Virus record (IMG/VR): IMGVR_UViG_3300044959_000303
Span: 1-64,000 of that record
Strand: one strand, 5' to 3'
From: a virus
Length of the DNA stretch: 64,000 nucleotides
The notes beneath the pieces were generated by a model. It saw nothing but the letters and a program-made list of their open reading frames with translations, ran no database searches and was not told the DNA's origin. A program made the position numbers and the translations under genes. Numbering within the stretch: the stretch's first letter is position 1; every line of letters begins with the position of its first letter. Shown piece after piece: positions 1,640-55,543 of this stretch.

Positions 1640-4600
1640 TCAGAATAATGGAAAATGAATCAGGAATTCTTCCGGATCATTCATATCGAAATATTTACGA
1701 TAAATCAATCCTCTGGTTTTTATTTTTGTTCCATATGGAAGAATGTTTTTTCTCACGTTCTTTATCTCTTCCAGAATCAGATTGTTGTTTCGATTCGGTT
1801 TCAGGTACATCAATACGAAAGACGGAACGTATCCAAGTGGTACACCATTTGCACTTGTTTGTCCCGAAATCATCCACAAAGGCAGTACTTCTCTTTCATA
1901 ACCTATATCAATTTCCAGATCTTTTCTCAAATTTTTCAAACTGGTCGGAACAATTACGGAAAAACCGGAAATCGAAGTATTGACGATTGCTTTCGCGGAA
2001 GAAGTAAATTTCCTGTTTTCGACATTTTCGTCGATAATTTCGATGTAAACGACTTCGTAACAGATTTCTCCTTTCGAATTTCTTGCTACGGCCTTTTTGA
2101 CATCTCCAAGAATGAATTCCATTTCTCTCCATACGGATTTGAATCCATTCGAAACAGTATTCGTATCGAAACCCAGTGCACTGAGAACAACATCATCGCT
2201 TGGAATTATCGTACCTCTTGCAAGCAATATTTCCTTTTTCGGCTTTATCGGAAAATTGATATCGTAATTTTTCCGAAAACGCAAATTTCGATTCAGATAC
2301 AATGGCAGACTCGAATTGATTGCAGTGAACAGCAATTCTTCCCTGTCGTTACCCTGAAAAGAAAACAACAGGGAAAATTCACTTATCGGATTGTCTACGA
2401 TGTTTTTTGCACTCAATACGAATTTTTTCTCCAGAAATATACCGGGATTGCTTTTCAGATGAACACGGGCGAAAAAAGAATAATTTGTATCAGCGGAAAT
2501 ATAATTCAGTTTTCCAATCAGATATCCGGTTTCGGAATTCAGAAAAATTCCCGGAGGAAGAACACTTCCAGATGCTATCGTATAAAATATTTCCGCTCCC
2601 TCGAAATCGAAGGCTTCGAGTTTCGACAAACAGGGATAAGTTTCATCGATCTGTCCGAGTTTTTCTTCGGACAACCAACCCAGAGTTGTCGAACTTTCGA
2701 ACAGATCACTGATTTCGACGACATTGATCTTGAAAATGTCATTGGTCACATTGTAACCATCGAAAATTTCGATTCGAAATGCATATTCTTTCGTACTTGT
2801 ATCGATATTGACAAGTCCTTGCAGAAATCCATCTCTGGTTACTGTCAGACTGCTCGGAAGACCTACCTTTACATCTGCCGACACGAAAGCCGAAACAGAA
2901 GAAACCACGACTCTGTAAATCAATTCATCGCCATCGGCATCCATGGCAGGTATGTGAAACGAAACATATTGCCCGATAGCAACATCGAGCAGATTGTCCG
3001 GATAAGACGAAACCAGAAAAATTGGCGAAGAATTGTTTGCAGATGTTCTCGTCACTACCGCAGAAAAAGAAGCATCTACATAATGAAAACCATCCGTGAC
3101 CCGAATTACGAAATCATGATTTCTCGAAACATTGCCTACCGATACGAAAAACAGGGAACTCGAAGAAATCGGAAAAGCCGACAATCTTCCTTTCAGAACT
3201 CCATTCGAACTCAAAATCAATCCAGCCGGCAAATTTCCATTTTGCAAACTGAAGGTCAAATTGTCATTTTCCGGATCCGTTACAAGATTGGCAAAAGAAA
3301 AATTCACAACATCATTGTAATTCATCGATGAAACATAAAGATTGACAAAATTGTTCGAATGATTCCAGAAAGGTGGATTGTTGTAATCGAGAACACGAAT
3401 CACGAGAGTTGTGAAAAAATCGATTCCTTGAGAACTTGCCGATATTACGACATTTCTTTCCGTATAACCGATTATATTGCCGGAAGATGAAGAAACGGAT
3501 ACATAGAAAGGATCACCGGATGTAATTTTTTCGACAACACCGACAATTGTTCCATTCGGCAGAAGATGAAGATTCGGAGGAAGTGAATTTCCGGTATTGG
3601 AAACAGAATATGTGAGATTTTGTGTTTGTGTATTTCCAAATCTCAGAAAACCTCGAAGATTGAAATTTATCGCAGAACCTTCGGAAAAATACACAATTGT
3701 TCCGGAAGTTGTCATGTTACCTGTAAAATTTTGAAATTTCGAAAAAAGAATTCTGTTGGAAGAATCACTGAATGGCAAATTTCGAATTCTTCCACGAGTC
3801 GAGAAAGTATCGAGATAAATTCGAAAATCACCTGTAGTTACCGGAAGAGAACTCGAAACACGTTCTTCGGCATACAATGCTGCAATTCCAGTTACGAAAG
3901 CTGCTGCACATGTTGTCGAAGTATTTCTTTTTACAGAATTGCCAATCCATCCGGCCAGTATGTTTTCTCCCGGTGAAAATATATCGGCATTGAAATTCGA
4001 TCCACGATTTCCTACAGGAGAAATCAAGGCATTGGAAGAAGAAATATGATCCGATTCATTGATCGATCCTACGGATATGGTACGAGTCGAATTGGAAGGA
4101 TAATAGAGATTTGCATTCTCGGAAAAATTTCCGGCAGGAGTTATGATTATACATCTGTTTGTCGAATTCAACATCTGTAATTTCGATTCTATTGCCAGAT
4201 TGAAATTTCTCGAAATCAGATTCAACAACACTATCGTGGGAGTGGTTTTGGCATTGTGCCAGTTCACAAGATCATTCAACACATTTTCGGTCAATGAAAA
4301 ATTCATTTCCTGTAAAGTCAGGTGATATATCTTGAATGAATACAATTTTGCCTTTTTTGCAACTCCGAATTCTTTTCCGGCTGCAATCGAAGAAACATGT
4401 GTACCATGTCCGATGTAATCTTTTCCAAATTGTGAAGAAGTCGGATCTATGTAAAGAGGATGTGTGAAATTCAGATATGTTCTGAAATCGGATATATGAA
4501 AAACTCTACCTCGAATATCGTCAATTTCCGAAATTCCGGAATCTACAATGGCAATATCGATATTTTCTCCTTCCAGAGAATATTTGTAAAGTCCATCCAA

Positions 4601-4669
4601 GGGCAAATCGATCTGATCTATTCTATCCAGACCCCAATTTCCGGAAAAATCTATTTTTTGTTTCTTCAT
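1640..4669 (-). CDS. Virion-associated protein: N-terminal proteinase K/aqualysin-like S8 domain (catalytic Ser replaced by Thr) plus tandem Ig/cadherin-like (He_PIG-type) domains
   Basis: S8 motifs are WGLDRIDQ, IAIVDSGI, GHGTHVSSIAAG, PAGN, DIFSPGENI and TSTTCAAAFVTGIAALY. Ig-like repeats follow: LPPNLHLLPNGTI, LPAGLILSSNGVL, DADGDELIY, LPPGIFLNSETG. Confidence 0.8.
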   Translation of the reverse strand: MKKQKIDFSGNWGLDRIDQIDLPLDGLYKYSLEGENIDIAIVDSGISEIDDIRGRVFHISDFRTYLNFTHPLYIDPTSSQFGKDYIGHGTHVSSIAAGKEFGVAKKAKLYSFKIYHLTLQEMNFSLTENVLNDLVNWHNAKTTPTIVLLNLISRNFNLAIESKLQMLNSTNRCIIITPAGNFSENANLYYPSNSTRTISVGSINESDHISSSNALISPVGNRGSNFNADIFSPGENILAGWIGNSVKRNTSTTCAAAFVTGIAALYAEERVSSSLPVTTGDFRIYLDTFSTRGRIRNLPFSDSSNRILFSKFQNFTGNMTTSGTIVYFSEGSAINFNLRGFLRFGNTQTQNLTYSVSNTGNSLPPNLHLLPNGTIVGVVEKITSGDPFYVSVSSSSGNIIGYTERNVVISASSQGIDFFTTLVIRVLDYNNPPFWNHSNNFVNLYVSSMNYNDVVNFSFANLVTDPENDNLTFSLQNGNLPAGLILSSNGVLKGRLSAFPISSSSLFFVSVGNVSRNHDFVIRVTDGFHYVDASFSAVVTRTSANNSSPIFLVSSYPDNLLDVAIGQYVSFHIPAMDADGDELIYRVVVSSVSAFVSADVKVGLPSSLTVTRDGFLQGLVNIDTSTKEYAFRIEIFDGYNVTNDIFKINVVEISDLFESSTTLGWLSEEKLGQIDETYPCLSKLEAFDFEGAEIFYTIASGSVLPPGIFLNSETGYLIGKLNYISADTNYSFFARVHLKSNPGIFLEKKFVLSAKNIVDNPISEFSLLFSFQGNDREELLFTAINSSLPLYLNRNLRFRKNYDINFPIKPKKEILLARGTIIPSDDVVLSALGFDTNTVSNGFKSVWREMEFILGDVKKAVARNSKGEICYEVVYIEIIDENVENRKFTSSAKAIVNTSISGFSVIVPTSLKNLRKDLEIDIGYEREVLPLWMISGQTSANGVPLGYVPSFVLMYLKPNRNNNLILEEIKNVRKNILPYGTKIKTRGLIYRKYFDMNDPEEFLIHFPLF

Positions 4670-4819
4670 GACATTTCGTATTTTTTCCTATTTGAAATAT
4701 TTATTACTCTTTTCCAGTTGAAATTTGAGCACAATACCCCCTTGATTCGCACATATTCAATTATTTTTTCAATTAATTCGAATTATGTTTTCTACAGATG
4801 AGTTCGAAATGAAAACCAT

Positions 4820-5005
4820 CCTTTGCGCAAGGGTTGAATTGCCTCGGAAACCTCGGCAATTCAACCCGTGGAAAAACCACGCTTCGCGACGCTAAGCTGC
4901 TTCGCTGCGCTGCGCAACGCTTAGCTGCTGCGCGTGGTTTTTCCACTTTCCCCTTTTTCTTTTCAACTCAAGAGAACCGCGGCTTCGCTTCGCTTCGCCG
5001 CGGTT
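4820..5005. repeat. Cluster of GC-rich inverted repeats
   Basis: GGGTTGAATTGCC 4831-4843 pairs with GGCAATTCAACCC 4855-4867. GTGGAAAAACCACGC 4868-4882 pairs with GCGTGGTTTTTCCAC 4932-4946. AACCGCGGC-(TTC-GC)2-TTC-GCCGCGGTT lies at 4975-5005. Confidence 0.9.
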
Positions 5006-5050
5006 TTTTTCGAAGAAATAAAGAAAATACAAAGCAGATGAAACAAAAAT

Positions 5051-5317
5051 GAACAAGACGAAATGTAAAGGAATTTGATAAAAGCGAAGCGAAGCGAAGC
5101 TGCGAAGCGAAGCGAAGCTGCGAAGCGAAGCGAAGCTCTTTGAGATACAAGGGAAACGGAGAAAAGGCGAAATGTAGCGAAGCGAAGCGAAAGCGAAGCG
5201 AAGCTACATTTCGCATCGAAGTGTAGCGAGTAAAGCGAAGCTAAGCGAGCGAAGCGAAGCTTAGCAAGCGAAACGAAGCTACACTTCGTCAAGGCGAAGC
5301 CATATTCCGTCTTGTTC
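5051..5317 (+). repeat. GCGAA pentamer array nested in perfect stems
   Basis: (GCGAA)n runs from 5084 to 5300. The outer IR is GAACAAGACG 5051-5060 / CGTCTTGTTC 5308-5317. Inner stems are 5167-5178/5203-5214 (12 bp) and 5217-5227/5278-5288 (11 bp). Confidence 0.9.
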
Positions 5318-5506
5318 GTAAATTACAGGTAAATCTGGTATAATATATCAGAATTGCATCATAATTGACTTGATATGTTGAAATTCAAATCGACTTTCAA
5401 TTTTCTCGAAAAATTTTCGAATAATTCTTGTTTCAAATTGTTTCAATATTTTTTTCTTCATCAAGGCTGTTTCCTGTCTTCAAAATAATATTTCATAATT
5501 TTCAAA

Positions 5507-6095
5507 TAACGCCATCCCCCCCCCCCGGCCGATTTTTCAGAAAAACCTTGTATGCACTTTTCTGAAAAATCGAACCGAGGAGAGAGGAAGGCGTAAATTT
5601 TAACGCCATCGCGTATTGATCTCATTGCCTGGGCGGTCCCCGAATTCCCGGCTTAATCGGTTGTACCGATATGAGATCAGCCCCCCTGACATGAAATATG
5701 TCAAGGACGGTCGCAGAGGGCCGGACGCAGCTTGTCTCTGCTCTTCGGTAGTGTCCATACGCACGAACAACTACCGTGTATTACACCTGTCTATTCGAAT
5801 TGAATAAACAGACATAATACTCCTTTTACCCCCACTGAGTGGGATCCCCTATACGAATCATGAATCTTTCACGATTCGTGGCATATCTGGTAAGAATATG
5901 CCTTTATACAGGCGGCTCGCAGAGGGTCCCTGCTGCGTGGTCACCCCTCCGGTCTTGCTCCTGTCCCCCCGGGTCTGGGGAATTTTTTCGAGTTCCTGAT
6001 AGGAAAGTTACTTTCCTAGCCCTTCCTCGTCCATCTTAGCATGGATAACTGTCTACCCCTCTTTTCGAAGAATAGAACTTGACCCGCTATGTCAC
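5507..6095 (-). ncRNA. Large structured non-coding RNA candidate (~590 nt), family unassigned
   Basis: GC-rich island with no credible ORF and about 12 consecutive helices. Several helices pair fully only on the minus strand through G-U wobbles. Ends are approximate. Confidence 0.7.
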
Positions 6096-6150
6096 GTTTC
6101 ATTTTTCAAGATTCGAAATCTTACAAGATTTTGAATCTTGAAATTTTTTT

Positions 6151-6186
6151 ATTATACTTATACAAATAATAAAAACTTTTTTTCAA
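6151..6186 (-). promoter_or_regulatory. Candidate promoter for the ncRNA
   Basis: The minus strand reads TTGAAA-N18-TATAAG-TATAAT and also contains the late-promoter-like TATAAGTA. A long hairpin at ~6104-6143 lies just downstream. Confidence 0.35.
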
Positions 6187-6301
6187 TTTTGCAAATTAAA
6201 TCAATTTTTCAATCATTCATATGTATTTTTTATTCATATATATTTCTTGCAAAAGTATATTTTGAAATTTTTGAAATTCAATTTTTTTTTTTTTGAATTT
6301 T

Positions 6302-7621
6302 TCACTGATCGTTTTCCTTGATCATGATATCTTTTCTTTCTTCGAAAGCTTTCAAAACTTCCTCGAAAGTCAACTCGTTTTCGACTGTGTCAATTCGACG
6401 GATATTTTTCTTTTCTTCGCTCAGTTTCACATCATAAATGGCACCAACTTTTTCGAAAACTTTTTCAGCTTCTTTTTCTGTAGAGGAAAATCCAAGGAAA
6501 AATTCACCAATTCTGGTAAATTTTCCTGTTTCTGAAAGTCTGTTCAACAGTTTGAAAATAATGGAATTGATCGAACTCATGTTGTCGAGAAAATGTTTTT
6601 CTGTCGTATTTTCTTCATTCTCGCTTTCTTTCATGGAATTTTCGGAAGGAAAATCGACAGATTCTTCAATCGCAACAACATATGCAGGAAAATTTTTCGA
6701 GAAAAAAGCTTCGTTGTAAGAATACAGATCATGTTTGCAATAGTGAATTTGCCAGTTTTTTCTTTCGTTGAGAAAATTCAAATTCGAAATGAAATTCATG
6801 AACATGGCAAATTTGATGTTTTCTTCTTCCTTTGCAAAAGGAGAAAAGAAAGAAGAAAACTCGACTTCGAACTTTCGAAAAGCGTTTTCCAGTTTGTTTC
6901 TTACATTTTCTTCACTCGAATTTTTCGAAGAGTTGAAAAATTTCAAATCTTCATCGAAAAGAAGATTATTGTTTTTGTCGATAAAAATTTCGATTGAAAA
7001 GTTCTCGACCAGAGACCTGTAGATCGAATCCGCGATAACATTACGAACGTAAATATCACTGATTTTCTTTCTTTTGTTCAAATTTTTGTAGATATGAACC
7101 ATATCCAGGTATGCATTTCGATCATTATTGTTCAAATTCAAATACATGTTTTCCAATTCTATAATCGAATTTTCTTTTGCCAGAACAGTATCGAAATCGG
7201 TAATCGAATGTACGATGAAACTTTTCAGAAGTTCATTCGCCTTTTTGTCATCTTCGGAAAATACAATCTCTTCGAATTCCTTGTTTTTCAGTTTCTGAAT
7301 AAAAATGTTTCTGTAAGAATCCAGTAAATTCTTTGCTTTTTCGGTCATGTTCACATCGCTGTCGATCACCATGCTTTCAAGCAAGCTTTCGAGCAAGTTC
7401 AAGTCAATTTCCACGAATTTGAAAAAATGTTTGTCACGATCGCGAAACTGAGCATAATCCCCCTCCATGAGATATGGAGTAAATGGCAATCCCAACATGA
7501 ATGCTTCGAAATCATTGATTTCTTTGAAATTGAATGTTTCTTTGACTTTTTTGATTGTTGCCGTAGAATCTGCTGCAACGATATAAGGTTTACCAGCTTT
7601 TGCAAGATAATAAACAATCAT
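6302..7621 (-). CDS. Hypothetical protein (439 aa), probable early gene
   Basis: Long ORF with an AAGGA RBS and a consensus sigma70 promoter; no recognisable motif. Confidence 0.75.
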   Translation of the reverse strand: MIVYYLAKAGKPYIVAADSTATIKKVKETFNFKEINDFEAFMLGLPFTPYLMEGDYAQFRDRDKHFFKFVEIDLNLLESLLESMVIDSDVNMTEKAKNLLDSYRNIFIQKLKNKEFEEIVFSEDDKKANELLKSFIVHSITDFDTVLAKENSIIELENMYLNLNNNDRNAYLDMVHIYKNLNKRKKISDIYVRNVIADSIYRSLVENFSIEIFIDKNNNLLFDEDLKFFNSSKNSSEENVRNKLENAFRKFEVEFSSFFSPFAKEEENIKFAMFMNFISNLNFLNERKNWQIHYCKHDLYSYNEAFFSKNFPAYVVAIEESVDFPSENSMKESENEENTTEKHFLDNMSSINSIIFKLLNRLSETGKFTRIGEFFLGFSSTEKEAEKVFEKVGAIYDVKLSEEKKNIRRIDTVENELTFEEVLKAFEERKDIMIKENDQ

Positions 7622-7651: not shown

Positions 7652-7680
7652 ATTATAGATTTCATATTCTTTTTTGTCAA
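7652..7680 (-). promoter_or_regulatory. Perfect sigma70 consensus promoter
   Basis: Minus strand TTGACA (7680-7675)-N17-TATAAT (7657-7652), 30 nt upstream of the 7621 ATG. Confidence 0.85.
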
Positions 7681-7859
7681 TTCATTTTTTTCGAGAAACT
7701 GTCCGGGATTGAAGCCTCGGGTTTTCTTGCAAAGATACAATGATGAAAAATATCGAATTTTTCGAATATCGAATTTGTTGTTTTTTCGATGATTTTTTTT
7801 TGAAATTTTTCAATATTCGAAAGAAAAAACATCGAAATTTGCAGATCGAAAAAATCGAT

Positions 7860-21357: not shown

Positions 21358-24300
21358 TTAACTGTTGTAGTTCAGATTATCTTCAATCGGTTTTGTCAAT
21401 TGTAGAATTACAAGATCTTCTTTATCATGAGAATTGTCTTCGTTTTTCCAATTTTTTCTCGTAATGTCGATTACGATATTTGGCAAGAAAATGGCAGAAA
21501 CTTCACTTCCGCTGACCATTATATTTCTTGCTGCCGGAGGAACGAAACCAAATTCTATGTTGTTTCCGTTTACAAGATATGTGTAGTTTTCACTGGCGAG
21601 TGCACTTGTTGTGAAAACTCTTTTCAAAGGAATTTCTCCAACCGGAACTATATTGTAAGAATAATTCGGAATCAATATTGTTGTTGCACTTCCGAACAGA
21701 ATCAAACTGACATTTATATTTACCGAAGATGTGACAAGAGCAGACAAACCGGAAATTGTAAACAAACTGGCAGCACTGTTCGATGTTACGAAAATGCTGG
21801 TTTTTTCTTCGTTTATTCCGCGAGGTGTATGAGACACTCCACGATTTACATCATTCAATTTCCATATTTTGTGACCGCTTGTTTCCATGTGAACTTCTGC
21901 GTTTCGAAATTCTATTTTTTCCGTGCCGATCCAGAGAAAAGAACTGTCTCCTTCCTGTACATTTCCATTGAAAATGATATTCGAATTTCTGAAAGCAGGA
22001 TGTACATGAATGTTTTCTCTCAACAATATCGAAGTTTCTCTTGCGGAAATTGCTTCTTCCAAGGTAAAAATTGTTCTGTTTCTTATTTCCAACGTTTTCT
22101 CTTTTTCCTTGTCACTTTTTACTTTCAATAGTGATGCAGCATCACCTCTTTCAATTCCAGATATGTAGAATACACAGGTTTTTTCGATGTTTTTCTTGTA
22201 AATGATGTTTTGTGTGGATATGACTTCATCCCATTCCGAACTGTCCCAAGAAAATACATCCCACCCATCTTTACTGATGATTTTATTGTAATCTATATGA
22301 GGAGTCTTGATAATTCCATTTTCCGAAACGAATATTCCTCCAATATTTTGAACATTGAAATCGAGTGTATCGAAGTTTCTGGAACCACCATGAAATCTGT
22401 TGACTTTCAAATTCATGATTTCACTGTTGTCCCACCAGAAATATGTCAAAGTCGAACCATGAACATTCATGATTTTCATTTCTCCGCTTACATCGATTAT
22501 ATCATAATCATAGTCTCCGCTTATCAACGTCACTATTTCGATAGTATTTCCGGCAGATATCGATGCCATTGCAGAAATTGTAAACTCTACAACGTTTGCA
22601 GAGTATCCGAGACTCGATACGAACAATGATGAAACAGTATAATCATCATTCAATGTCAGAATCGAACCATTATTGTAAACTCTTATTCCATCAATGCCCG
22701 GGGAAATATCGACCGAACTCGAATATTCTTTTTTGTCAGGCGAAAAAGTGAATCTTTCGACATAAGGAGGACATAACATTTTTCCAGAAGAAAATACCAA
22801 TATCGAATTTACATATGGTCTTCGAGTAAATGCACTGAGAGGAATCGAAACATATACCGGCAAAGAACTCGAATTTATACTCAATTTTTCTCTTCTTGTT
22901 TTTGTAATATCGCTTCCATCGAATATATACAAACTCAGAATGTTTTTGGCACTCGATGTAGCACTCGAATTGAATGTCAGTGTATTTCCAATTATATCGA
23001 TTTGTGCTTCGTAACCATCGACTGTTGCATACAAATTACTTGAAACCGTAATGTTCGAAAAGATAATATCATCCAAATCGATTGTGAAATTTTCCTGATT
23101 GATGTAAAGATGTTTTTCTTTCAATAATGTAGAACCACCACCAGCTTCGAAAATTCTCAAATCGAACTGATATTCGTAATCCGGAAGATTTGCTGGAAGA
23201 AAAGTTACTTTCAGATTTTCGTAATCGAAAATGTAATGAATTCCTTCTTCCAGAAGATTTCCATTTCCAAATATTATCAACGATTCCCGATTGTGAGGAA
23301 CAGCATTCAGTTTTACAGGCAAGCCAGAAAGTTCCGATCTCGAAAAACTGAAACGAAGGCTTGTTATCGGAGGATAACCTTGTTTACCCTTGCCGTAAGC
23401 ACGAATCAATGCAGTGTCGAAAAATGTGACAGGTAAAAGTTCTTCCGGATGATCTTTCGAAATATGTGGTTGAGAGAGAAGACCACCTTCGTATATCGGG
23501 TTGAAAGGTGAACTTACGGTTTGCCATATAATTCCAGAAGTCGTTGTGGAAATTCCAGAAATTTTTACATCATACAACAAATCTATGGAATCTGCACTTA
23601 TTGCAATATCTTCATGTATGTTTGTTACGTTGCTCAATGGATATACATTGAAGCCATAATATTTGTTCCATAATTCGATGAAATTGTCTTGAGTGGAATA
23701 ACTGCTGATATAGGATTCGAGCCACGTGTTTCCTCTTGCATCCATGTAATCTTGAAATACTATTCCATCCGGAGTCATTACAGGTGCAAGATTTTCGACA
23801 AAGAAACTTTCATTCGGTAATGGATTATATATGTGAATCAGAATATTGTCTTGAGTGGCTTGAAAATATTCTGGGCTCAATTCCAATCCACCACCTTCTA
23901 CAATGATTCCCTTGAATGTACAACCAGAAATCAGATCTTCGACGTTTTTCACTGGTGGTGGTATTTCGAGTTTTCTACCGAATATGTTCGATGAAACAAC
24001 CTGATAATAAAGATCGATTCTTTCGGCAGCATTGATCCATCTTTCAATTACGATTCTTGTTCCATTTTCATATATTCGATCCAGAACGACGATGATTTCG
24101 TTCGTGGATATTATTATGTTTATTCTGTTTTTGTCCAATGTTCCATGAGTACCATTTGGTCTGAATATTGAAATTTTTCGAATGTTCGATTTCGACCACA
24201 ATTTTTCTTTACCAAAATCGAATGGATTGTAATTTTCAATAAACGGTTCTGTTGTAACTTCTGTAGTGTTGAAAAGACGAAATGTCGTACTCGAACCGTC

Positions 24301-27300: not shown

Positions 27301-30300
27301 TTGGCGAAATTCTTTCGAATTCAAGGAAAACACAATTTTTCTATTGTCGTCGACATTTCCATATTCCGAAGCAAACAACATCCATTCTTCCAACATTTCG
27401 ATGTTTGTTATGTTTGTTATGAACTGGCTGCGAAGTATTTTTTCCAGACTTTGTTTCGTACCTTTGGTTTTTATCAATCCTTGATAGAAATTGACCTGTG
27501 ATTTGTCACTTATGAGAAGATTCGAAAGATATGATCTTTTCTGATATCCTATGTTGTGAAAAGCATAATCTTTCCATTGTGATTCCGTGTTCGATGTATC
27601 GTTTATATCGAACAATGATATGAATTGATCGGCCAATTTATCGTAATTTGGCAGAATGATCTTGTCCGGAGTTATTATGAATCCTGCAATTTCGTATCTT
27701 CCGTTCCAGTTTTTCGTAGATATCGTACTTATTCTCAATCTTGGAAGAAATACGCCGAGAATTCCGTTGTTGATCACGTTTCCAAATATCGTATTGTTAT
27801 TGAAAACCAATGCATGTTCTATTGTTTCGATCGAAAGTCTTGCAAAATACAGAAGAGAATTTTCATCTTCTTCGTTTACAGGAATAATTCTGACAATATT
27901 GTCATCTCTCATGATTGCAACATTTTTCGGAGGAATTTTGTTACCAAAACGATTCAATACAGAGTAGAATCCCTTCTGTATCGTTTCCACGGGAGAAACA
28001 AATCCGAAATCTGTGAAAAACTTTATTTCTCTACTCGAAGGACTCAAAGATATCACATCACCTCTCTCGATTCCTGAAATGCACCACAACATGAATTCTC
28101 TTGCCGATTTTACAAAATCGATCAACTCGTTGTTGACTTCATCGTATCTATCGAACACAAAACCTACACTTTTCAGATAATCCTGATACGAAACCAGAAA
28201 ATTCACTACTTCTTCGATTCTTCGAAACTTTGTTCCATAAGGAATTTCTTCTACAATTCCTGTAGTATCCTGAAAAATGGTCGCTGTAATTCTGTATCTT
28301 TTTGGAATTTCACGTATCGAAATCCATTTTGTTGCATCGAAGAAATTATCACTTATGTGAGTTTCTTTTGCTTTGTAAAGTTTTCCCGAGTTTTCGAGAA
28401 CAACTATATCGCCAACAAAATATTGAGTATTTTCAACCCACTTTCGAACATTTTCGTTTTGTTGACCGACACCTATTGTTTTCTTTTTTCCATTTTTGTT
28501 TCTTTGCAATATTTTGAATGTTTTTGCAAAGAAATCATAACCGTTGACAGTATAACCATCTTCAACTTTTTCAATTATGACACCTGAATATACTACTTCT
28601 CGAAAATGCTTCTGATTGTAGAATGTAACTTTTACATTTTCTTTGGGAATCAATCCGAAACTGTCGCTATCGACCCTCAAATTGTTGGTATCCACGAATC
28701 TTCCACAACGATAGGAAAGGTTGGAAACAATATTTCTTGTCTTTTTTCCGAAATTTTCGGTAATATCCTTGAGATCCTTTTCGAGATAGTTGGTAATCCA
28801 TTGTTGCAAACCATAATTCATGATCAAACCGTTGTTCACATTCATTGTATTTTTTACAACAGAGGATATATCAATTTCTTCGATTATCGAAGAAGACTCG
28901 TTGTGTACAACGAGATTTCTGTTTTCTGGTCTGTGTCGATAATTTTCGAGAATGATTTGAACATTTGTTGCATCTGTTCTGTTCTTGAACAACTCTACAA
29001 TATTTTCTGTGTCCCAATTTGTCGATACGAATTTTGCCGGTTTGCAAAGAAACAAAATCAAGGAAAGATCGAAGCTGAAATTTTCACTTTTGTACCAAGC
29101 CGTCTCGATCGTACCAACATCTCCGAATTCGAAAGGTTGGACTGCATCTTGAGGAATTGGATATTGTGAAACTATACCTATCGAAATCGGATCCAGTAAT
29201 TCGCCGGTTGTAGAAACGGGTATGTATTTTTCCAGATCCGGTCTCGAAAATCTCGTATCGATTCCCTGTCTTGGTCCCTGTCTTATACGACCATCTCGAA
29301 GATCTTCCCATAACTTCGCATTTCCAGAAGTATATGGTGGCGGACCATATTCGGAATTCCACCAACTTGGTTTTATCGAAAAACCGAGCATTTCCCAAGG
29401 AAACAGATCAGGACGATCGGTATCGTAATACCAGAGATAAATTCCTCTCCAGTTTCCGGGAATGATTTCTCCATCCTGATCTTTCACTGTGCGATAATTT
29501 ATCGAAAAATTATCGTTTCCTGATGGAATATCTTCGAAAGATATTCCGTTTTCCGATAACCATCGATGAAATATGTTTTTCGATATTTGCAGAAATTCTT
29601 TTCTGCTGTATTCGGTATTTCTCCATTTTCCTTGTCTTATATCATATATCGAATATAGTGGAATATAATCATTTTTGAATTTACTTGGAGCACTTTCGTA
29701 TATTCTTTCTTCGAGGCGAAAAAGAATATTGTCCCGAAAATCTCCAAATGTCGATATTACACTTCCATCGTGTTGTCTCAACAACAGATTCGAGCTTATT
29801 TTGTCATCATTGTAAAATTGTGGTTTGTACAAAGGAGTAATACCGAGAAATGCAGGAGATGCAGGAATATATTTCGGTAACGAATTCGACGCTGTCAAAT
29901 CCACACCAGTGTTCCGGAATGGAAAATCGAAGTTTTTTCCAAAGTTTATTTCACTCAATATGGCATCTATCCAATCATCGGGATTTGTGGAATTGATCAA
30001 ATTCTTTTCCCAGAACTCATTGGTTTTTCTCAAAAATCTGTTTTTGAATCTTATGAATTCTCTTTCTACATATCTCAATGAATCGACAAAAGATGTATCT
30101 TCCTTTGTAAGAAGCATGAGCTTGAGAATTGGCTCGGTATGCTGCAATATTCTTTCACCTTTCCATCTTTCTGCCAAAGTATCCTTGTAATTGTTGATTC
30201 CAAATTCACTTCCCTGAAAACCAATCTGTTTCCTCATGCATTCCATGAAATGAAGAAAAACATCGTCGTAACTTACTTTTTCGACATCGCGATTTTCGGC

Positions 30301-32289
30301 ATTTTTGACCAGAGAAATTGGATTTTCGAAGATCAGATCTTTCTTTTCGACAATTCCACCCGGAAGAATTCGAATATCGACAAAATCCTGTCGATTCAAC
30401 GAACTTGTAAATATTATTCTGTTGTTCGGTGAATCATATGTCCAATCGATTGCATGCTCCTTTTTCACACCATTGACTTTTACTATCAAACTTTCATTGT
30501 AGAATCTTGTGAAGTCTGTCAAAGGTAACAGTGGTTCGACCGGAAGATCGATAACTGTTGTTTCTTTTTCAATGACAATTTTTTCGACAACATATTGTTT
30601 CGATTTTTCTCTTGAAAAATTCCAATTGTTTCCATACTCGGAAAGAAATTCATGAGGACTGTTGATATGCCAGAAATAGTAATAAGGAATTTCCAAAGTT
30701 TCTGTTGTTACGGAATCGATGTAGGTCCATCTTTCCGTATACAGATAATTTTCGAACACGAATTTACCGTTTTCATTGAATACAGGACGTATTCCCAATT
30801 CTCTGTCTCTGGGAGTTGTATTCGTATCATCTATTGCGTAACCGAAAATTCTGCTTCCTGAAAAATTCGAAGAATTGTAGATGGAAATATCGTCGAGTCT
30901 GTTGAGATCCTTGTCGTACAATTGAAATAATGGTGGTTGATTTACTCTCTGTTTGGATTGCCCTCTTTTCCATTCGTTTCCATCGAAAAAGAAGACGTAT
31001 TCGAATCCCAGAGGATCGGTAAATGTGACATAATCGCCTTCATTTGGATAAGGTGTCAGTGGTTCGAGTTGAATGATCTGATTTTCTTCGCTTATTCCAG
31101 TAACTCGATATATTCTGTTGTTTGCTCCCGGCGAAGATGAATTTGCAAAAAGAATGATCATGTTATTGGAAACCTGAAAACTGTTTCCAAAAACATCTTT
31201 TATGATGACATTGCTTATTCCTCTTCCTGCATCCGGCCAGGTTTCGCTGTACAGAATATCACTGACTTCACAAGGAAGATCCACACCACCGTATGGAGGA
31301 ATACCGTATGTGGGAGAAAGATTGTTCAAAATTGAAAACATTTGTGGACAAAATGTCACAACATTTACTTCCATGAGAAAATTGGTTCCATGATTCCACA
31401 ATTCCAGATCTCTTTCGAACATGATAATCGGTCTTTTGGCCTGAATTTTGACCAAATTCGGATCGTTGAAATTTTTGATTACACTTTTGTGAAACCAGCG
31501 ATTTTTTCGACTCCAAGCATTTTTGTCTTTTGCGCCTCTTTCCATTACAAAATAATCGGGAATATTACTTATCTGCAAACTGTTGTCCCACAAATCTTCA
31601 TCCCACGACAAAATATCCCAACCGGCAATTCCAACTTCATCTTCTACGAGAACTATTGCTTTTCCTACGCCTTCAACTATGAAAATTCTGTTGTTGTTTG
31701 CTGGATTGACATCGTTTTTCGGTTGAATCAGCATATGTGATTCGAGTTCCAAAGGTTCGCCGTTTACTGTTATTGTTGCATACGGCAATCCAACAATGGA
31801 ATCCAAATCTGTCAAATCATCGATAACTATAGGTTCTGGCGAAGAAGGTAACCAATAGTAATTTCTGTAATTTACAAATGCATCGAGATTTATTGGTGGT
31901 GACCAACTGTAGAAATTTTCAGAAAAAAGTCTGTTCTGGTCGGTAATTATCGAACCATGATATTCGAGATAATTGAGCAGATCATTGTAATATTGAAGAA
32001 ATTCTACACTATTGGCACTTGTAAATGCGGCAGCATGTGTCAACTGGTGAATTTGTCTTTCCGAATTTCTTTCGTTGATATAAAAATCGGTTTCTTTTCG
32101 ATGATAACTTGGTATGTCTCCTATGTATCCGACAACTTCTTCTGTATCTTGTGGTTGATATAACTGATTTATGGTAGCGTGAAAGAATGACTTCAAAACC
32201 GGAGTTTGAAGCAGAGAAGGAAGAAATTCTACGAGATTTCTTTTTTTCTCGAAGTTTTTCTTGTCCGGATTTATCGGTGTTTCTGCCAT
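21358..32289 (-). CDS. Giant (3643 aa) baseplate wedge-like virion protein
   Basis: Uninterrupted 10.9-kb ORF between gp6-like and connector genes; PPINLDAFVNYRNYYWLP N-terminal motif. Confidence 0.75.
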   Translation of the reverse strand: MAETPINPDKKNFEKKRNLVEFLPSLLQTPVLKSFFHATINQLYQPQDTEEVVGYIGDIPSYHRKETDFYINERNSERQIHQLTHAAAFTSANSVEFLQYYNDLLNYLEYHGSIITDQNRLFSENFYSWSPPINLDAFVNYRNYYWLPSSPEPIVIDDLTDLDSIVGLPYATITVNGEPLELESHMLIQPKNDVNPANNNRIFIVEGVGKAIVLVEDEVGIAGWDILSWDEDLWDNSLQISNIPDYFVMERGAKDKNAWSRKNRWFHKSVIKNFNDPNLVKIQAKRPIIMFERDLELWNHGTNFLMEVNVVTFCPQMFSILNNLSPTYGIPPYGGVDLPCEVSDILYSETWPDAGRGISNVIIKDVFGNSFQVSNNMIILFANSSSPGANNRIYRVTGISEENQIIQLEPLTPYPNEGDYVTFTDPLGFEYVFFFDGNEWKRGQSKQRVNQPPLFQLYDKDLNRLDDISIYNSSNFSGSRIFGYAIDDTNTTPRDRELGIRPVFNENGKFVFENYLYTERWTYIDSVTTETLEIPYYYFWHINSPHEFLSEYGNNWNFSREKSKQYVVEKIVIEKETTVIDLPVEPLLPLTDFTRFYNESLIVKVNGVKKEHAIDWTYDSPNNRIIFTSSLNRQDFVDIRILPGGIVEKKDLIFENPISLVKNAENRDVEKVSYDDVFLHFMECMRKQIGFQGSEFGINNYKDTLAERWKGERILQHTEPILKLMLLTKEDTSFVDSLRYVEREFIRFKNRFLRKTNEFWEKNLINSTNPDDWIDAILSEINFGKNFDFPFRNTGVDLTASNSLPKYIPASPAFLGITPLYKPQFYNDDKISSNLLLRQHDGSVISTFGDFRDNILFRLEERIYESAPSKFKNDYIPLYSIYDIRQGKWRNTEYSRKEFLQISKNIFHRWLSENGISFEDIPSGNDNFSINYRTVKDQDGEIIPGNWRGIYLWYYDTDRPDLFPWEMLGFSIKPSWWNSEYGPPPYTSGNAKLWEDLRDGRIRQGPRQGIDTRFSRPDLEKYIPVSTTGELLDPISIGIVSQYPIPQDAVQPFEFGDVGTIETAWYKSENFSFDLSLILFLCKPAKFVSTNWDTENIVELFKNRTDATNVQIILENYRHRPENRNLVVHNESSSIIEEIDISSVVKNTMNVNNGLIMNYGLQQWITNYLEKDLKDITENFGKKTRNIVSNLSYRCGRFVDTNNLRVDSDSFGLIPKENVKVTFYNQKHFREVVYSGVIIEKVEDGYTVNGYDFFAKTFKILQRNKNGKKKTIGVGQQNENVRKWVENTQYFVGDIVVLENSGKLYKAKETHISDNFFDATKWISIREIPKRYRITATIFQDTTGIVEEIPYGTKFRRIEEVVNFLVSYQDYLKSVGFVFDRYDEVNNELIDFVKSAREFMLWCISGIERGDVISLSPSSREIKFFTDFGFVSPVETIQKGFYSVLNRFGNKIPPKNVAIMRDDNIVRIIPVNEEDENSLLYFARLSIETIEHALVFNNNTIFGNVINNGILGVFLPRLRISTISTKNWNGRYEIAGFIITPDKIILPNYDKLADQFISLFDINDTSNTESQWKDYAFHNIGYQKRSYLSNLLISDKSQVNFYQGLIKTKGTKQSLEKILRSQFITNITNIEMLEEWMLFASEYGNVDDNRKIVFSLNSKEFRQNPQIIEFKLVETESIVSGGTVFPSSLSENYFYDISSGILYKKNNGNFSVLYSWKEVIDNIFVDSPSDNTITYRIGTFGENIVFADDEILEKPSDFDRNYNKNHWLWNVHHGNTDFVVSFAGHLQKNEVKHQFFDKRELFVSAIPSEFELGDRVWIYEVFDVKNSKYKDWSVFECMKITNAVSSFTFIANSSGDNEMKISFVTNLGTSANRTLKEGDIIVIKAENTVEFEGIYEIKRMEGLKDVIVTANPEFRDFIDASALSTINGFEILNFVEVRFKDIYEAENEFSTNYYISKNQSYSDKLLFIDDFRNENEKFFLPKYYGIMKVTSFNSLNLPGRKFIYSVHRIQNKFVDSSKFDSLTVRDRNTKSILAKIPVYDPLSDKILPEIKTNVDFMIGYDPAIYTNGDESVFVVEESSAVWSKNKVGKIWFNTRKAKYLDYKTTSDEYSRENWGKLAPKSKVEIAEWIESSNPPSSYNGDGVPLYGENSPYVITKEKDSTKNIEITKYYFWVTDSENVSFGKTLSTKELASLLKNSYRNHNWYSPLRNNSLLISLDDSLKNETFLSLPWNDEGREDISHKEWYIVRENTSSWLPSNVLWNKMIDSLTGFDYLNRPVPDPKLPLNDSTGISVRPRRSMFVNREEAVRNLIYFMNWKLEKIRFLEEIDFSKIYISEKEPQNTNFVVDNFTQRDALITSNLINVGQTVLVRSEPALSNMWSVWKLISINPISWKLVNIQKYRTDDFIQISDFYSEEVDKNKIPVKIFNSISERNNSLLNGFIEENEVILLNDNGFGLWEWQKWNGTSWITLAKQNSTIQLKDAFYKNRFIFGIFENEDLNSNIDLLKKKIDFRDGRLELRHLLNVFRNENLLGQLFINEIFFNQLRYALTESNNNSSWIVKSSTLILGNIIENATRETTVRPDIVKSLIEYLEEIKPYHSKFRQITKTLIPPTDNLDLIIDDFDQNVAFPTSANLNLLRKFETTLRFDRVSCDEDFHPEKIMFETDGSSTTFRLFNTTEVTTEPFIENYNPFDFGKEKLWSKSNIRKISIFRPNGTHGTLDKNRINIIISTNEIIVVLDRIYENGTRIVIERWINAAERIDLYYQVVSSNIFGRKLEIPPPVKNVEDLISGCTFKGIIVEGGGLELSPEYFQATQDNILIHIYNPLPNESFFVENLAPVMTPDGIVFQDYMDARGNTWLESYISSYSTQDNFIELWNKYYGFNVYPLSNVTNIHEDIAISADSIDLLYDVKISGISTTTSGIIWQTVSSPFNPIYEGGLLSQPHISKDHPEELLPVTFFDTALIRAYGKGKQGYPPITSLRFSFSRSELSGLPVKLNAVPHNRESLIIFGNGNLLEEGIHYIFDYENLKVTFLPANLPDYEYQFDLRIFEAGGGSTLLKEKHLYINQENFTIDLDDIIFSNITVSSNLYATVDGYEAQIDIIGNTLTFNSSATSSAKNILSLYIFDGSDITKTRREKLSINSSSLPVYVSIPLSAFTRRPYVNSILVFSSGKMLCPPYVERFTFSPDKKEYSSSVDISPGIDGIRVYNNGSILTLNDDYTVSSLFVSSLGYSANVVEFTISAMASISAGNTIEIVTLISGDYDYDIIDVSGEMKIMNVHGSTLTYFWWDNSEIMNLKVNRFHGGSRNFDTLDFNVQNIGGIFVSENGIIKTPHIDYNKIISKDGWDVFSWDSSEWDEVISTQNIIYKKNIEKTCVFYISGIERGDAASLLKVKSDKEKEKTLEIRNRTIFTLEEAISARETSILLRENIHVHPAFRNSNIIFNGNVQEGDSSFLWIGTEKIEFRNAEVHMETSGHKIWKLNDVNRGVSHTPRGINEEKTSIFVTSNSAASLFTISGLSALVTSSVNINVSLILFGSATTILIPNYSYNIVPVGEIPLKRVFTTSALASENYTYLVNGNNIEFGFVPPAARNIMVSGSEVSAIFLPNIVIDITRKNWKNEDNSHDKEDLVILQLTKPIEDNLNYNS

Positions 32290-32304: not shown

Positions 32305-35300
32305 TCAGCCTCTTATTCTCAGTGAACTTCTGCTGTTGGTCTCTATAATATCTATGTTTTTTCGAGTGACATGAGGCAAAAACAATTGATTTGGTTTCGA
32401 TCTTATTTCGAAAAGATTACCGAAAACAGATTCCGCGTTTTTCGGAACAATGACAATCGAAGCAATTTCCGAAACAAGGTTTTGATGTATGAAAGCAGCA
32501 AGTTCAGTGAAATAGAATGTTTCACCAAAATCCCAATTTTCGATATCGAAAAATCGATTGATCAAATCTATGATTCTCGTTTTTATTTCACCATCCGACA
32601 AAGATGCGTTCGGGGTTTTGATTACTTTGAAAGTTGCCTGTAATTCTTCCAAAGCTTTGTCTCCGAACAGAATTACATATTCTACCGGATTCCATATGAT
32701 TTCATCACTTATCATTTTCAATTTTTCCAATTCCGAATATGTTATTTTCATTTCTGCTTGTGTAGGTGGCAAAGGTTGTGGTTCGTCTGTTTCTTCCTGT
32801 ATCCATTGTCGAACAAGATCATCATAATTTTTATCCAGAACAAATATATCTATTATATTCGAAATCGATGGATCTGAAACATTCGAGAAAGGTGTTACAT
32901 GCTCCCATAGAAATGTCAGATTTTTTCTTCCTCTTCTGATAAGAAAATTGTTTTTGTCCAGAATTTTCTGTGCCGAAGGCACTTTTGCCAAACCTACATT
33001 CAAACCTCCCGGTATTATATCACCAGTCAGATATACATTGTCGATTTCGAAAAGAAAAAATTCATATTGTTTGTCAGATGTACCTTCACAATAAACTATT
33101 TCTTTGTCAACCCATAAAGTTCTGGTATCCGTGTTGATGTAATATTGATCCATTTTCGTTATGGCAGAAACAAGAGTGTTTTCTATGAAGATTTTTTGAA
33201 TTTCGATTGGTTCGAAATGTTCGAGTCCATCTATATCTACAAATTTTCTCCAGAAAAGTCTCGGCGGCGGTTGAGTCGAATTTTCGATCAGTATTCTGTC
33301 GAAAGTGTCCGGATCATCGATAAAAGTATCCAGATTCGAATCACAATATGTAACGATGACTTTTCTTGGTTCTTCATATCCGTCTGGATATCTGAAAGTA
33401 TCACTGATGCAAAATGTACTGTCTTTTTCCAAACCCGGACATATCGATAACCATTCCGTATTGTTGAAATAACTCGAAGTCGTGGCACTGACTACTGCTT
33501 TGTAAATTGTGTTGTCGAAAATTACCAGACTGTTCATTGTATATGAAATTCCGGAAACCCATGCTGTAGGATTTTCATTTACAACAGAAGGGCTTGTATT
33601 GCTTCTATTGACTGTTATTATATCCTGTTTCACATTTCCTTCATTGTCGACAATTGGAGTTTTCTGTGTAAAGAAAAATCTGACATCTTTTTTGCTTTCG
33701 AAAACATGACGTAAACCTCTGAAAGTAACTGTCATTGTGCTTGGACTGTTGAAAGTTACAAGCACCATCCATTTTCTGGCGTTGTTGTCATACGTAAAAT
33801 CCGAATTCAAGTCGAATCCGGTAATATTTGGTGGTTCGATAATTTTCCAAGCATCGGTTGTAAAATCGTAATACAAACCAAAGGTATTTCTTTCTGACAA
33901 TCTGGAGATTATCGATGATGTTTCGAAACTGTTCAGTTCAGTTCTTATTTTGGGAAGAATTTTTTCTACTATATCTCCTTCCTTTACACTTCTGCTCAAA
34001 AATATTTTTCCTGTGCCTGCATCCAGAAAACCTTCGGAGACTCCTTTTCCATTGTCTATTACATTGACAACTCCTGTCCATCCAGCTTCTTTGAATTTTA
34101 TCATCGATCCGCTTTTGACAAGATCCAAACTGTTTCCTGCCGGAAATGAAAGATTTACGGCAAGTGCATTGACTGTTTGTGGTATTGGAAGAGAAGAAAC
34201 CAAAGCCGAATCTACAAATCTGCCAGTTGAACTGACATTGTCACCAGAAATTCTGTCCCACATGATCTGACCAAGTACTCCAAAAGCCGGTGGAACTTCG
34301 AATAACGAGGAATACATTGGTAATTTTGCGGCATTGTTTTTCAAGGCATCAATGATGAAATCTCTTAGTTCAATATTGGAAAACAAAGGAAAGATATGAT
34401 TGAAAAATATTTCCTCATTTGTAAGATCAACGAAATTTTCGATTACAATTTCAGTATTTTCCTTCTCTTTGAAAAGTATGCCATCATTTCCAAGAACTTT
34501 GACAGAGTTGTGTGATCCAGTAGGATCTTTTATGTCTATGAATCTCGAATGTCCAGCATATGTTCGATTGATTGCTTTGAGTTTTCGAATGTTCTGGTGC
34601 GACAAAGGCAGAGAATTGTAATCCTCTGCATTTACCATTCGATTTTGTGAATAGTAAACCTGAGGAGCATTTTTTCTTATTTCTTCCACACTTTCAGCAG
34701 GAGCAGAATTGGTCACCGGTTCTTCCAGACTCAGATAAAGTGTCAATGTTTTGTTTTTTTCTGCTGAATTTACATAATTTATCGAAACACCGACATTTGA
34801 AATATCTCTTGGACGAATTACCAGTTTGTCACCATAGCTTGTTCTGTAATAAACTCTTATACGTCCAAAAGGAACCGCTCCAAATCTTCCATCGCCAAAT
34901 CTTATCGTAATTTGATCGTTGTCTCTTGTTTCTACGGAAAATATATTTCTTACGGTAATCGGAATATCGTTGAATATGATATTTTGAATCACACTGTCTG
35001 GAACTTTGGTCCAGACAGTGTTTATCGTACCATCTTCATCGAGAGTTTGAACAAAAACATCTTCATTGTTGATATTTTCCTTGTTTATATCGAGAGTTCT
35101 GTTTTCCAAAGGAATGGTAATGTTGAAATCCGAGAACAGCAAAGATCCTTGTTTGAAAAATGTGAAAAATCCAGTCGAACTGCTATTGTTACCTCGTCCA
35201 TCCTTTTTATAGAGAATATGAAATTTCGAAAAGAAATCCGGCGATCTTTCCTTGTATCCTTCCAGTTCGGAAAAACTTACATTCACATTTTCGAACTGTA

Positions 35301-53851: not shown

Positions 53852-55543
53852 ATGGTAAAATACAGAAAAAAAATTCAAGGAAATTACATTCAACAGGCAA
53901 AAAATTTTTCACGGACAAATTTTTTGAATGCAAGCAATGATCTTGGTTTCAAATGGCAGAGTTATCTGCCTCTCATATATGCCGGACAACCTAAAAGAAG
54001 AGAAAGATACAATCAATACGATATAATGGATGCCGATCCGGAAATCAATGCTTCTCTCGATATCATTGCCGAATTCTGTACACAAACAGATCAACCGAAC
54101 AATTTGCCATTTCGTATAAACACTTTCGAGTCCATGTCGGACACCGAAATGGAAATTATCAGAAGAAATTTGATAAAATGGACCAGAATCAACGAATTCG
54201 AAAGAAGATTGTTCAATATTTTTCGAAATACCATAAAATATGGCGACCAGATATTCATAAAACATCCGAAAACCAAAAAATGGTTATGGATAGATCCGGC
54301 AAGAGTAGCATCGATAATTGTCAATTCGGCAAAAGGAAAAAAGCCCGAGTTTTATGTTGTCGAAGGGCTCGATGTAAATCTCGAAACTCTTGTAGCAACA
54401 ACTCCTCCGCCTGCATATCAGCAGACGACCGGCCTGGTGGCAAGATCTCCCGGTCCGGTAACTTACTCTTATCCCAGAATGGATTCGACATTGGGAAGAT
54501 ATACTGCACAAGCTACGCAACCAGCATTTATTGCAGCAGAAAACATCGTTCATATTTCATTGTCGGATGGCATGGACAACAATTGGCCTTTTGGCAATTC
54601 CATTCTCGAATCAGTGTACAAAGTTTTCAAACAGAAGGAACTTCTGGAAGACTCGATAATAATATATCGTGTACAAAGAGCACCGGAAAGAAGAGTTTTC
54701 TATATCGATGTCGGTGATATGTCACCGGCAATGGCAAATCAATATATCAATCGAATCAAAAATCAGATACATCAGAGAAGAATTCCTACCTTCAATGGTG
54801 GTGGTGAAAGTGTAATGTCAACGGCTTACAATCCATTGTCGATACTCGAAGATTACTTTTTCGCACAAAGTGCAGACGGTAGAGGATCCAAGGTCGAAGT
54901 TCTTCCGGGCGGAGATCAACTTGGACAAATCGACGATCTGATCTATTTCGACAGAAAATTGAGAAGAGGATTGAGAATTCCAAACGCCTATCTTCCCGGA
55001 TCGACAGAAGAAGGCGGATCTTATAGTGATGGCAAAGTCGGAACAGCATTCATACAGGAATTTCGTTTCAACAAATACTGTATGAGATTACAACAGGCAA
55101 TAATTCAAAAATTCGATGAGGAATTCAAAAACTATATGAAAAGTTCCGGTGTAGAATTGAATTTCGATTCTTTTGAAATTCAATTTCACGAACCACAGAA
55201 TTTCTCTCGTTATCGTCAAATTGAAATCGATAGTGCACAAGCTTCCGTGTTTACGTCACTTGCAGATATTCCGTATTTGAGCAAGAGATTTCTTATGAAA
55301 AGATTTCTGAATCTTTCCGATGAAGAAATTTTCGAAAACGAGAGACTTTGGGAAGAAGAAAATGAAATCAAGGATGAAGATGATATCGACGATTTGAATG
55401 TGAATTTGCCGGACGTAGGTATACATTCGACAGATATGAATTATTCTGACAATCTGGAAACAGAAGAACCGGAAGAAGACGTAGAAGAAGTTCCCGAAGA
55501 AGAAAAAGTCGAAGAAGAAATAAAAAGTTCTTTTGAAAAATGA
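53852..55543 (+). CDS. Portal protein (T4 gp20-like)
   Basis: LLEDSIIIYRVQRAPERRVFYIDVG, EDYFF, GSKVEVLPGG. Confidence 0.95.
   Translation: MVKYRKKIQGNYIQQAKNFSRTNFLNASNDLGFKWQSYLPLIYAGQPKRRERYNQYDIMDADPEINASLDIIAEFCTQTDQPNNLPFRINTFESMSDTEMEIIRRNLIKWTRINEFERRLFNIFRNTIKYGDQIFIKHPKTKKWLWIDPARVASIIVNSAKGKKPEFYVVEGLDVNLETLVATTPPPAYQQTTGLVARSPGPVTYSYPRMDSTLGRYTAQATQPAFIAAENIVHISLSDGMDNNWPFGNSILESVYKVFKQKELLEDSIIIYRVQRAPERRVFYIDVGDMSPAMANQYINRIKNQIHQRRIPTFNGGGESVMSTAYNPLSILEDYFFAQSADGRGSKVEVLPGGDQLGQIDDLIYFDRKLRRGLRIPNAYLPGSTEEGGSYSDGKVGTAFIQEFRFNKYCMRLQQAIIQKFDEEFKNYMKSSGVELNFDSFEIQFHEPQNFSRYRQIEIDSAQASVFTSLADIPYLSKRFLMKRFLNLSDEEIFENERLWEEENEIKDEDDIDDLNVNLPDVGIHSTDMNYSDNLETEEPEEDVEEVPEEEKVEEEIKSSFEK

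Follow-up and report, generated by a model that had tools for sequence, protein, structure and literature searches.

A probable lineage-specific large structured RNA in an uncultivated T4-like jumbo phage

The locus described here belongs to an IMG/VR virus record of 107,128 bp, the first 64 kb of which constitute the window, that is, the whole stretch of 64,000 nucleotides that was analysed. The record has an overall GC content of 36.4% and a CheckV completeness of 28%, which implies a genome of about 380 kb. The source is an uncultivated T4-like jumbo phage, probably infecting a Gram-negative host. In addition to a T4-type portal, the window encodes a gp5/VgrG-like baseplate hub, a gp46/SbcC-like nuclease and several tail-fibre-like proteins. 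According to portal identity, the nearest cultured phages are jumbo myoviruses throughout, namely Atu_ph07 and Phosso (51%), PA5oct (48%) and the RaK2/121Q/CBB-like phages (45-47%). All genes between positions 1 and 8758 lie on the minus strand, and the RNA proposed below has the same orientation as the genes that flank it. The main features are the following:

5507 to 6095, minus strand: predicted structured RNA core of about 590 nt, 49-53% GC (hereafter the island)
6104 to 6143, minus strand: AU-rich hairpin of 18 bp, located after the candidate promoter and before the GC-rich core
6166 to 6194, minus strand: candidate sigma-70-type promoter TTGCAA-17-TATTAT, 9 of 12 consensus positions matched, predicted start at about 6159
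6302 to 7621, minus strand: 439-aa gene with an acidic product, upstream of the RNA and ending at its own stop at 6302
7652 to 7682, minus strand: perfect consensus sigma-70 promoter AATTGACA-17-TATAAT, before the 439-aa gene
5348 to 5464, minus strand: possible 37/38-aa ORF (MKKKILKQFETRII...) with a Shine-Dalgarno-like AGGAAA, directly downstream of the terminal hairpin
53852 to 55543: T4-type portal (Pfam Portal_T4, E 9e-102)

The island sits inside a 1.6-kb non-coding tract rich in repeats and hairpins, and it is the only ORF-free GC-rich island of the 107-kb record. Its GC content compares with 25% in the upstream flank (about 6000-6450) and about 35% in the downstream flank (5250-5550), and a 200-nt AT-rich spacer separates it from the stop of the 439-aa gene. 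An earlier note, made from the sequence alone, had described a GC-rich island in a genome of about 30% GC; the island stands, and the genome figure was a little low. The same note had called the element non-coding, which agrees with its coding capacity. Indeed, the ORFs of the island are all short (25-66 aa), starting with TTG/GTG or encoding R/S/P-rich products, and the two longest have no Pfam match. All six frames contain TAA, TAG and TGA alike, so that reassigning any one stop codon would not open a reading frame.

The minus strand between 5500 and 6110 folds (RNAfold) with a minimum free energy (MFE) of -255.9 kcal/mol, corresponding to z-scores of -11.8 against 20 dinucleotide shuffles and -11.5 against a separate set of 30 dinucleotide-preserving shuffles. 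With the same two shuffle sets, the plus strand (MFE -206.5 kcal/mol) gives z-scores of -5.7 and -6.2. Three windows taken as controls from the same genome, which had looked extreme under a cruder shuffle and include GC-richer coding ones, range from -2.2 to -5.0 with the dinucleotide shuffle. A high z-score obtained at 106 kb with mononucleotide shuffles was gone with dinucleotide shuffles. The minus-strand fold comprises 209 predicted pairs, among which 24 are G-U and are spread over the helices; because such pairs become A-C mismatches on the opposite strand, the two strands differ by 49 kcal/mol, and the G-U pairs fix the strand as minus. The earlier description of a highly structured element of about 590 nt, with its strand set by G-U pairing, is therefore borne out by a fold far beyond chance on that strand. 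In sequence and thermodynamic terms the feature is confirmed as real, and the strand assignment is firm, keeping in mind that thermodynamic z-scores alone do not establish function.

From 5' to 3' on the minus strand, the predicted RNA is composed of the following elements (P, pairing probability):

5989 to 6076, minus strand: 5' domain of three hairpins (6076-6052, 6045-6030 and 6029-5989, the last with an inner 8-bp stem), P 0.95-0.98
6076 to 6052, minus strand: helix UCUAUUCUUC/GAGGGGUAGA, 3 G-U pairs
5981 to 5964, minus strand: weak C4/G4 hairpin, P 0.32
5714 to 5951, minus strand: central multi-branch domain, closing helices P 0.90-0.99
5879 to 5853, minus strand: helix ACGAAUCGUGAA/UUCAUGAUUCGU, 1 G-U pair
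5820 to 5778, minus strand: 19-bp hairpin containing CUGUUUAUUC/GAAUAGACAG, one branch of the central domain, 4 G-U pairs
5683 to 5707, minus strand: 10-bp hairpin UCCUUGACAU/AUGUCAGGGG following the motif GCGACCGUCC, P 0.91, 2 G-U pairs
5617 to 5679, minus strand: three-way junction with a 9-bp closing stem UGAUCUCAU/AUGAGAUCA, P 0.88-0.98
5509 to 5594, minus strand: terminal hairpin of about 40 bp, P 0.96, 5 G-U pairs in its base

Each helix named in the earlier note is found in the minus-strand MFE fold, mostly with pairing probabilities of 0.88-0.99, and this holds for its three-way junction and for its terminal stem with a G11 run. A single-stranded CAGGAGCAAGAC links the weak C4/G4 hairpin to the central domain, which is closed by three long-range helices totalling 20 bp (CGGAGGG/CCCUCUG, ACGCAGC/GCUGCGU and CUCUGC/GCAGAG) and sends off four branches, one of which forks into two hairpins. 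The 10-nt word CCCUCUGCGA occurs twice, at 5923-5914 and 5720-5711, in strands of two of the closing helices, so that alternative pairings are conceivable. The three-way junction carries a 6-bp hairpin and an asymmetric hairpin, the latter made of an outer stem GCCGGG/CCCAGGC, a 5' bulge AAUU, an inner stem CGG/CCG and a loop GGA. A small hairpin lies between the junction and the terminal hairpin. The latter, at the base of which the pyrimidine run UCCUCUCUCCUCGG pairs with the G11 run, is followed by UUAUUUG. It is a candidate 3' end or terminator of the RNA; it has a U-rich tail, yet its form is not that of a canonical terminator. A search of the unpaired segments for pseudoknots of at least five Watson-Crick pairs found none.

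Two routes of transcription can be considered. The site TTGCAA-17-TATTAT at 6194-6166 is a weak match, by consensus only, and is a candidate promoter. As no minus-strand terminator-like site was found in the part that was scanned (6500-6095), read-through from the 439-aa gene could also yield the RNA. Upstream of the ORFs of this phage, the most enriched 8-mer is the T4-late-promoter-like word AATAAATA. This word is missing upstream of the island, while a shorter core, ATAAATA, lies at 4698-4704 (minus strand) before the downstream subtilase-like structural gene. The missing late-like word favours an early RNA made by the host polymerase, and this is the more likely prediction. The mimivirus-type promoter word AAAATTGA, initially suspected, turned out not to be enriched.

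Several other elements were observed around the island. On the plus strand, antisense to the RNA, the segments 5964-5981 and 6104-6143 form terminator-like hairpins with T-runs and have no plus-strand gene upstream. Between the RNA and the subtilase-like gene, positions 4830-5320 hold a GCGAA/GCTTC pentamer array of about 40 units, together with three strong hairpins, among them CCGCGG...CCGCGG, whose tail is T-rich, and a GGGTTGAATTGCC stem of 13 bp. The product of the 439-aa gene has no Pfam or PHROG family, its structure prediction is poor (pLDDT 0.35), and a protein-atlas search gave no usable lead. Among 5.8 billion proteins it has a single relative, 86% identical, on a JGI contig of 3,925 nt.

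The earlier note could not place the RNA in any family by eye, and the Rfam search that it suggested leads to the same result. With Rfam 15, no match was obtained at gathering score over the whole window, and at E up to 10 over 5300-6300 only sub-threshold long-hairpin (miRNA precursor) models fell on the terminal stem. ROOL, GOLLD, OLE, HEARO, raiA, group I and group II introns, RNase P, tmRNA and 6S RNA are unmatched at the sensitivity of these models. ROOL and GOLLD are large "ornate" RNAs of phages and prophages with unknown function (Weinberg et al. 2017, PMC5737381), and RNA-only homo-oligomeric assembly is reported for them from cryo-EM (preprint 10.1101/2024.12.08.627333). The island resembles them in its size of about 0.6 kb, its phage origin, its lack of ORFs, its GC content above that of the genome and its many helices (PMC5737381). 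However, ROOL and GOLLD often lie near tRNA gene clusters, whereas the 64-kb window has no tRNA gene according to ARAGORN, and ornate RNAs are rich in pseudoknots, whereas none of at least 5 bp is predicted here; the probable Gram-negative host is a further difference. With no match to either model (RF03087 for ROOL, RF01998 for GOLLD) at gathering score or at E up to 10, the island RNA appears to lie outside both families.

The collection of homologues, for which the earlier note had proposed nhmmer, returned none in the phage, IMG/VR or JGI sets searched with BLAST, nhmmer, a covariance model and pattern scans. More precisely, blastn with words of 11 found nothing among 50,697 phage records, and BLAST against 29 IMG/VR relatives (selected via the portal gene), EJP2, CBB, PA5oct and Atu_ph07 gave chance words only. 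By nhmmer, nothing was found in records G003, G001, G007, G012 and G013 (first 20 kb) or in EJP2, CBB, Atu_ph07 and PA5oct. A covariance model of the island hairpin plus three-way junction (R1; 114 positions, 36 pairs), run over 34 related records including complete genomes of 457 kb and 578 kb, EJP2, CBB, PA5oct and Atu_ph07, matched only itself. We also scanned the IMG/VR and JGI metagenomes with four patterns, (i) CCCTCTGCGANCNNCCT, (ii) CGACCGT...TTCGGNNNCCGCCC, (iii) CTCTCCTC...GGGGGGATGG and (iv) GCGACCGTCC...CGGGGACCGCCC; these gave 92, 45, 9 and 21 loci respectively, each of which was rejected by nhmmer or R1. Synteny through the 439-aa, 1009-aa and 1186-aa neighbours revealed no relatives in IMG/VR, and a metagenome scan with the alignment of the 439-aa protein and its relative did not return the 3,925-nt JGI contig. 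An apparent gap in G012 (29681-31414) is an ORF running off the contig end, not an RNA. In the databases searched, the island RNA thus appears as an orphan, with no described family and no detectable relative.

Other large RNAs or RNA-like families are present in related jumbo phages, at these positions:

EJP2 (OQ411014), RaK2 type, plus strand: 36799-37315, 90716-91230, 170506-171011, 250395-250835 and 293080-293551
CBB (KU574722), RaK2 type, plus strand: 32364-32832, 94300-94783, 174438-174966, 258180-258681 and 336371-336807
G003 (457-kb IMG/VR record), G003 type: 125923-126582 (minus), 198849-199744 (plus), 305478-306311 (plus) and 415221-416123 (minus)
PA5oct (MK797984), ncRNA002: 21951-22401, 451 nt, z -5.7
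PA5oct (MK797984), ncRNA004: 246116-246734, 619 nt, z -6.8, clearly strand-asymmetric

The RaK2-type RNA occurs in five copies each in EJP2 and CBB, all on the plus strand and 45-80 kb apart; a single copy of the island is seen in the 107-kb record, which covers about 28% of its genome. The 3' domain of the RaK2-type RNA shows compensatory changes in 13 of 27 pairs, and a TGTGATATAAT promoter is conserved upstream of most copies in EJP2. Literature searches, which were not aimed at this RNA, brought up no paper on it. The island shares with the RaK2 type the clade, a length of 0.45-0.6 kb, a GC-elevated ORF-free context and a promoter of its own (a candidate one in the case of the island). By eye, both have a three-way junction with an asymmetric hairpin and a G-run hairpin near the 3' end, and the words CGACCGU and UAUAA(A)GG...CUUACCA appear in the island RNA with their order kept. 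However, a closing 5'-3' helix (GAUGAG/CUCGUC) is present in the RaK2 type and absent from the island RNA, and the overall topology differs.

The G003-type family, which is undescribed, consists of four ORF-free RNA-like copies of about 650-900 nt, spaced about 50-110 kb apart on both strands. Covariation is seen in its three-way junction, and the family also shows the asymmetric hairpin GCUGG-UUU-CGG-GAAA-CCG-CCAGC together with a long terminal hairpin in which a pyrimidine run pairs with a G run at the base; nhmmer finds no link between it and the RaK2 type. It offers the most similar local motifs, that is, the asymmetric hairpin (UUCGG..ACCGCC.AG.C), which lies inside the junction as ...UUCGGGGACCGCCCAGGC in the island and ...UUUCGGGAAACCGCCAGC in G003, and the pyrimidine-run/G-run terminal hairpin.

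Finally, RNA-seq has revealed four ORF-less ncRNAs in PA5oct, of which two make up about 1-5% of phage reads (PMC7318152). The two listed above, whose function the authors describe as unknown (Lood et al. 2020, PMC7318152), resemble the island in being ORF-less, predicted to be structured and carried by a related jumbo phage, but their fold statistics are less extreme than those of the island RNA and nhmmer detects no sequence similarity. A GC island of similar composition in PA5oct (37899-38512) contains small host-like ORFs, has a z-score of about -2.5 and is not an analogue. No Rfam match was found for two G003-type copies (L246 and L247), for EJP2 170506-171011, for CBB 174438-174966 or for the ncRNA002 region of PA5oct.

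Profile searches were equally negative. A 10-sequence RaK2-type profile built from EJP2 and CBB found no match in the genome, or in the 611-nt RNA given as sole target, with nhmmer --max. A covariance model (R2; 91 positions, 16 pairs) of the RaK2-type module formed by a hairpin, ACGACCGUUG and the three-way junction gave no match at the island locus (record 4000-7610) with cmsearch filters off and E up to 10. The G003-type nhmmer profile found nothing in the 611-nt RNA as sole target, nor did R1 find anything in G003. Moreover, the branches of the island junction are in a permuted order relative to both the RaK2 type and the G003 type (opposite in G003). Because the profile and R2 tests are negative and the branch order is permuted, we have not filed the island RNA in either family; the related jumbo-phage RNAs are best regarded, on these comparisons, as analogous to it and not detectably homologous.

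Taking thermodynamics and context together, the island is probably a real, lineage-specific large structured RNA. Our preferred reading, held with moderate confidence, is that of a large folded non-coding RNA specific to its lineage, made early by the host polymerase and acting in trans; this reading would place it, as a lineage-specific case, within the broad kind of large ornate phage RNAs. By analogy, the precedents in jumbo phages (RaK2 type, G003 type and PA5oct) lend support to the island as a large phage RNA. For transcription, RNA ends, action in trans and any function, we infer the following course. The minus strand of 5507-6095, with a start possibly at about 6159, would encode an ncRNA of about 590-650 nt. 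Host RNA polymerase would either initiate at the RNA's own weak sigma-70-like site or read through from the promoter of the 439-aa gene, and the transcript would end at the terminal hairpin. The product would adopt a compact, highly helical fold (5' hairpins, multi-branch centre, hairpin, three-way junction and 40-bp terminal hairpin) and would act in trans as a stable folded molecule, for instance as a scaffold, as a decoy for host or phage factors or as part of a ribonucleoprotein.

A broader proposal, which we put forward only tentatively, is that every jumbo phage of the RaK2/PA5oct/Atu_ph07 clade maintains at least one large folded RNA that is specific to its lineage but built with shared modules, the island founding a third family. 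The shared modules would be the asymmetric hairpin in a three-way junction and the pyrimidine-run/G-run terminal hairpin, and the RNAs would have either diverged past sequence recognition or arisen independently.

It is rather unlikely that the island is instead a very divergent member of one superfamily with the RaK2 and G003 types, with more copies in the unassembled 72% of the genome. The phages do belong to the same broad clade, the portal being 45-51% identical to those of RaK2-like phages, PA5oct and Atu_ph07; a single copy in 107 kb agrees with the density in EJP2 and CBB, where one occurs every 45-80 kb; and, by eye, the asymmetric hairpin in the junction, the terminal pyrimidine-run/G-run hairpin followed by AU and the short words in order all fit common descent. 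Against this, the nhmmer profiles of both families give no match even in a search restricted to the 611-nt RNA, R2 has no match at E up to 10, R1 has none in EJP2, CBB or G003, and the order of the junction branches is permuted relative to both families.

We consider it improbable that the island is a cis-acting part of an mRNA, whether as a long structured 3' UTR, processing or stability element belonging to the early 439-aa gene or as a leader controlling the 38-aa ORF. The consensus sigma-70 promoter upstream of the 439-aa gene, the lack of any detected minus-strand terminator-like site from its stop (6302) to the island and the small ORF with its Shine-Dalgarno-like sequence directly downstream are in line with such a role. 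However, 590 nt and 209 base pairs far exceed what stabilisation or termination needs, the AT-rich spacer of 200 nt with its promoter-like site parts the gene from the island, and analogous RNAs have a conserved promoter of their own (TGTGATATAAT before most RaK2-type copies in EJP2).

R-loops form at replication origins in the case of ColE1 RNA II and of T4 oriF/oriG, and the island could by comparison mark an origin, the G-rich 3' segment of a pre-primer RNA remaining in a persistent R-loop on the C-rich template, the AT-rich stretch serving as unwinding element and the GCGAA array as iterons. The G11 run at the RNA 3' end, the upstream stretch of 25% GC, the 40-copy pentamer array and strong hairpins 200-700 nt downstream, and the spacing of the related RNA families along their genomes (regular in EJP2 and CBB) would suit such a site. 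Like the island RNA, the ColE1 pre-primer is structured, about 550 nt long and equipped with a G-rich segment able to hybridise to a C-rich template, but no likeness in sequence or structure was noticed. The predicted fold leaves no base of the G run unpaired, no repeat arrays like that of 4830-5320 lie beside the RaK2-type or G003-type copies, and the G003 copies are on both strands, so we regard an origin as a quite improbable explanation.

A functionless relic, in which a decayed foreign GC-rich insert or the remnant of a mobile element would form helices incidentally, seems still harder to credit. The sequence is an orphan of atypical GC content within the 1.6-kb tract of repeats and hairpins, as a relic might be, but a z-score of -11.5, an asymmetry of 49 kcal/mol and 24 strand-specific G-U pairs are unlike decayed coding DNA, and the control windows, GC-richer coding ones included, reach only z-scores of -2 to -5. 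A self-splicing group I or group II intron is very improbable: the size would be compatible and T4-like phages often harbour group I introns, but no Rfam intron model matches at E up to 10 on 1 kb (group I core RF00028; group II domain V/VI RF00029, absent from both window and island) and no gene is interrupted, the upstream ORF stopping at 6302 and no exon frame continuing downstream.

Large, intricately folded non-coding RNAs are rare, and ROOL and GOLLD, the best-known ones associated with phages, are still without a known function. If the RNA predicted here is real, it would add a further, unrelated example, from an uncultivated jumbo phage. Together with the RaK2 type, the G003 type and the expressed ncRNAs of PA5oct, it suggests that big structured RNAs recur across this clade and are not confined to one genus. 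Should this tentative clade-wide proposal be true, it would point to a general RNA-based function in giant tailed phages, and it would provide several independent sequences for structural work and for questions about the role of such RNAs during infection.
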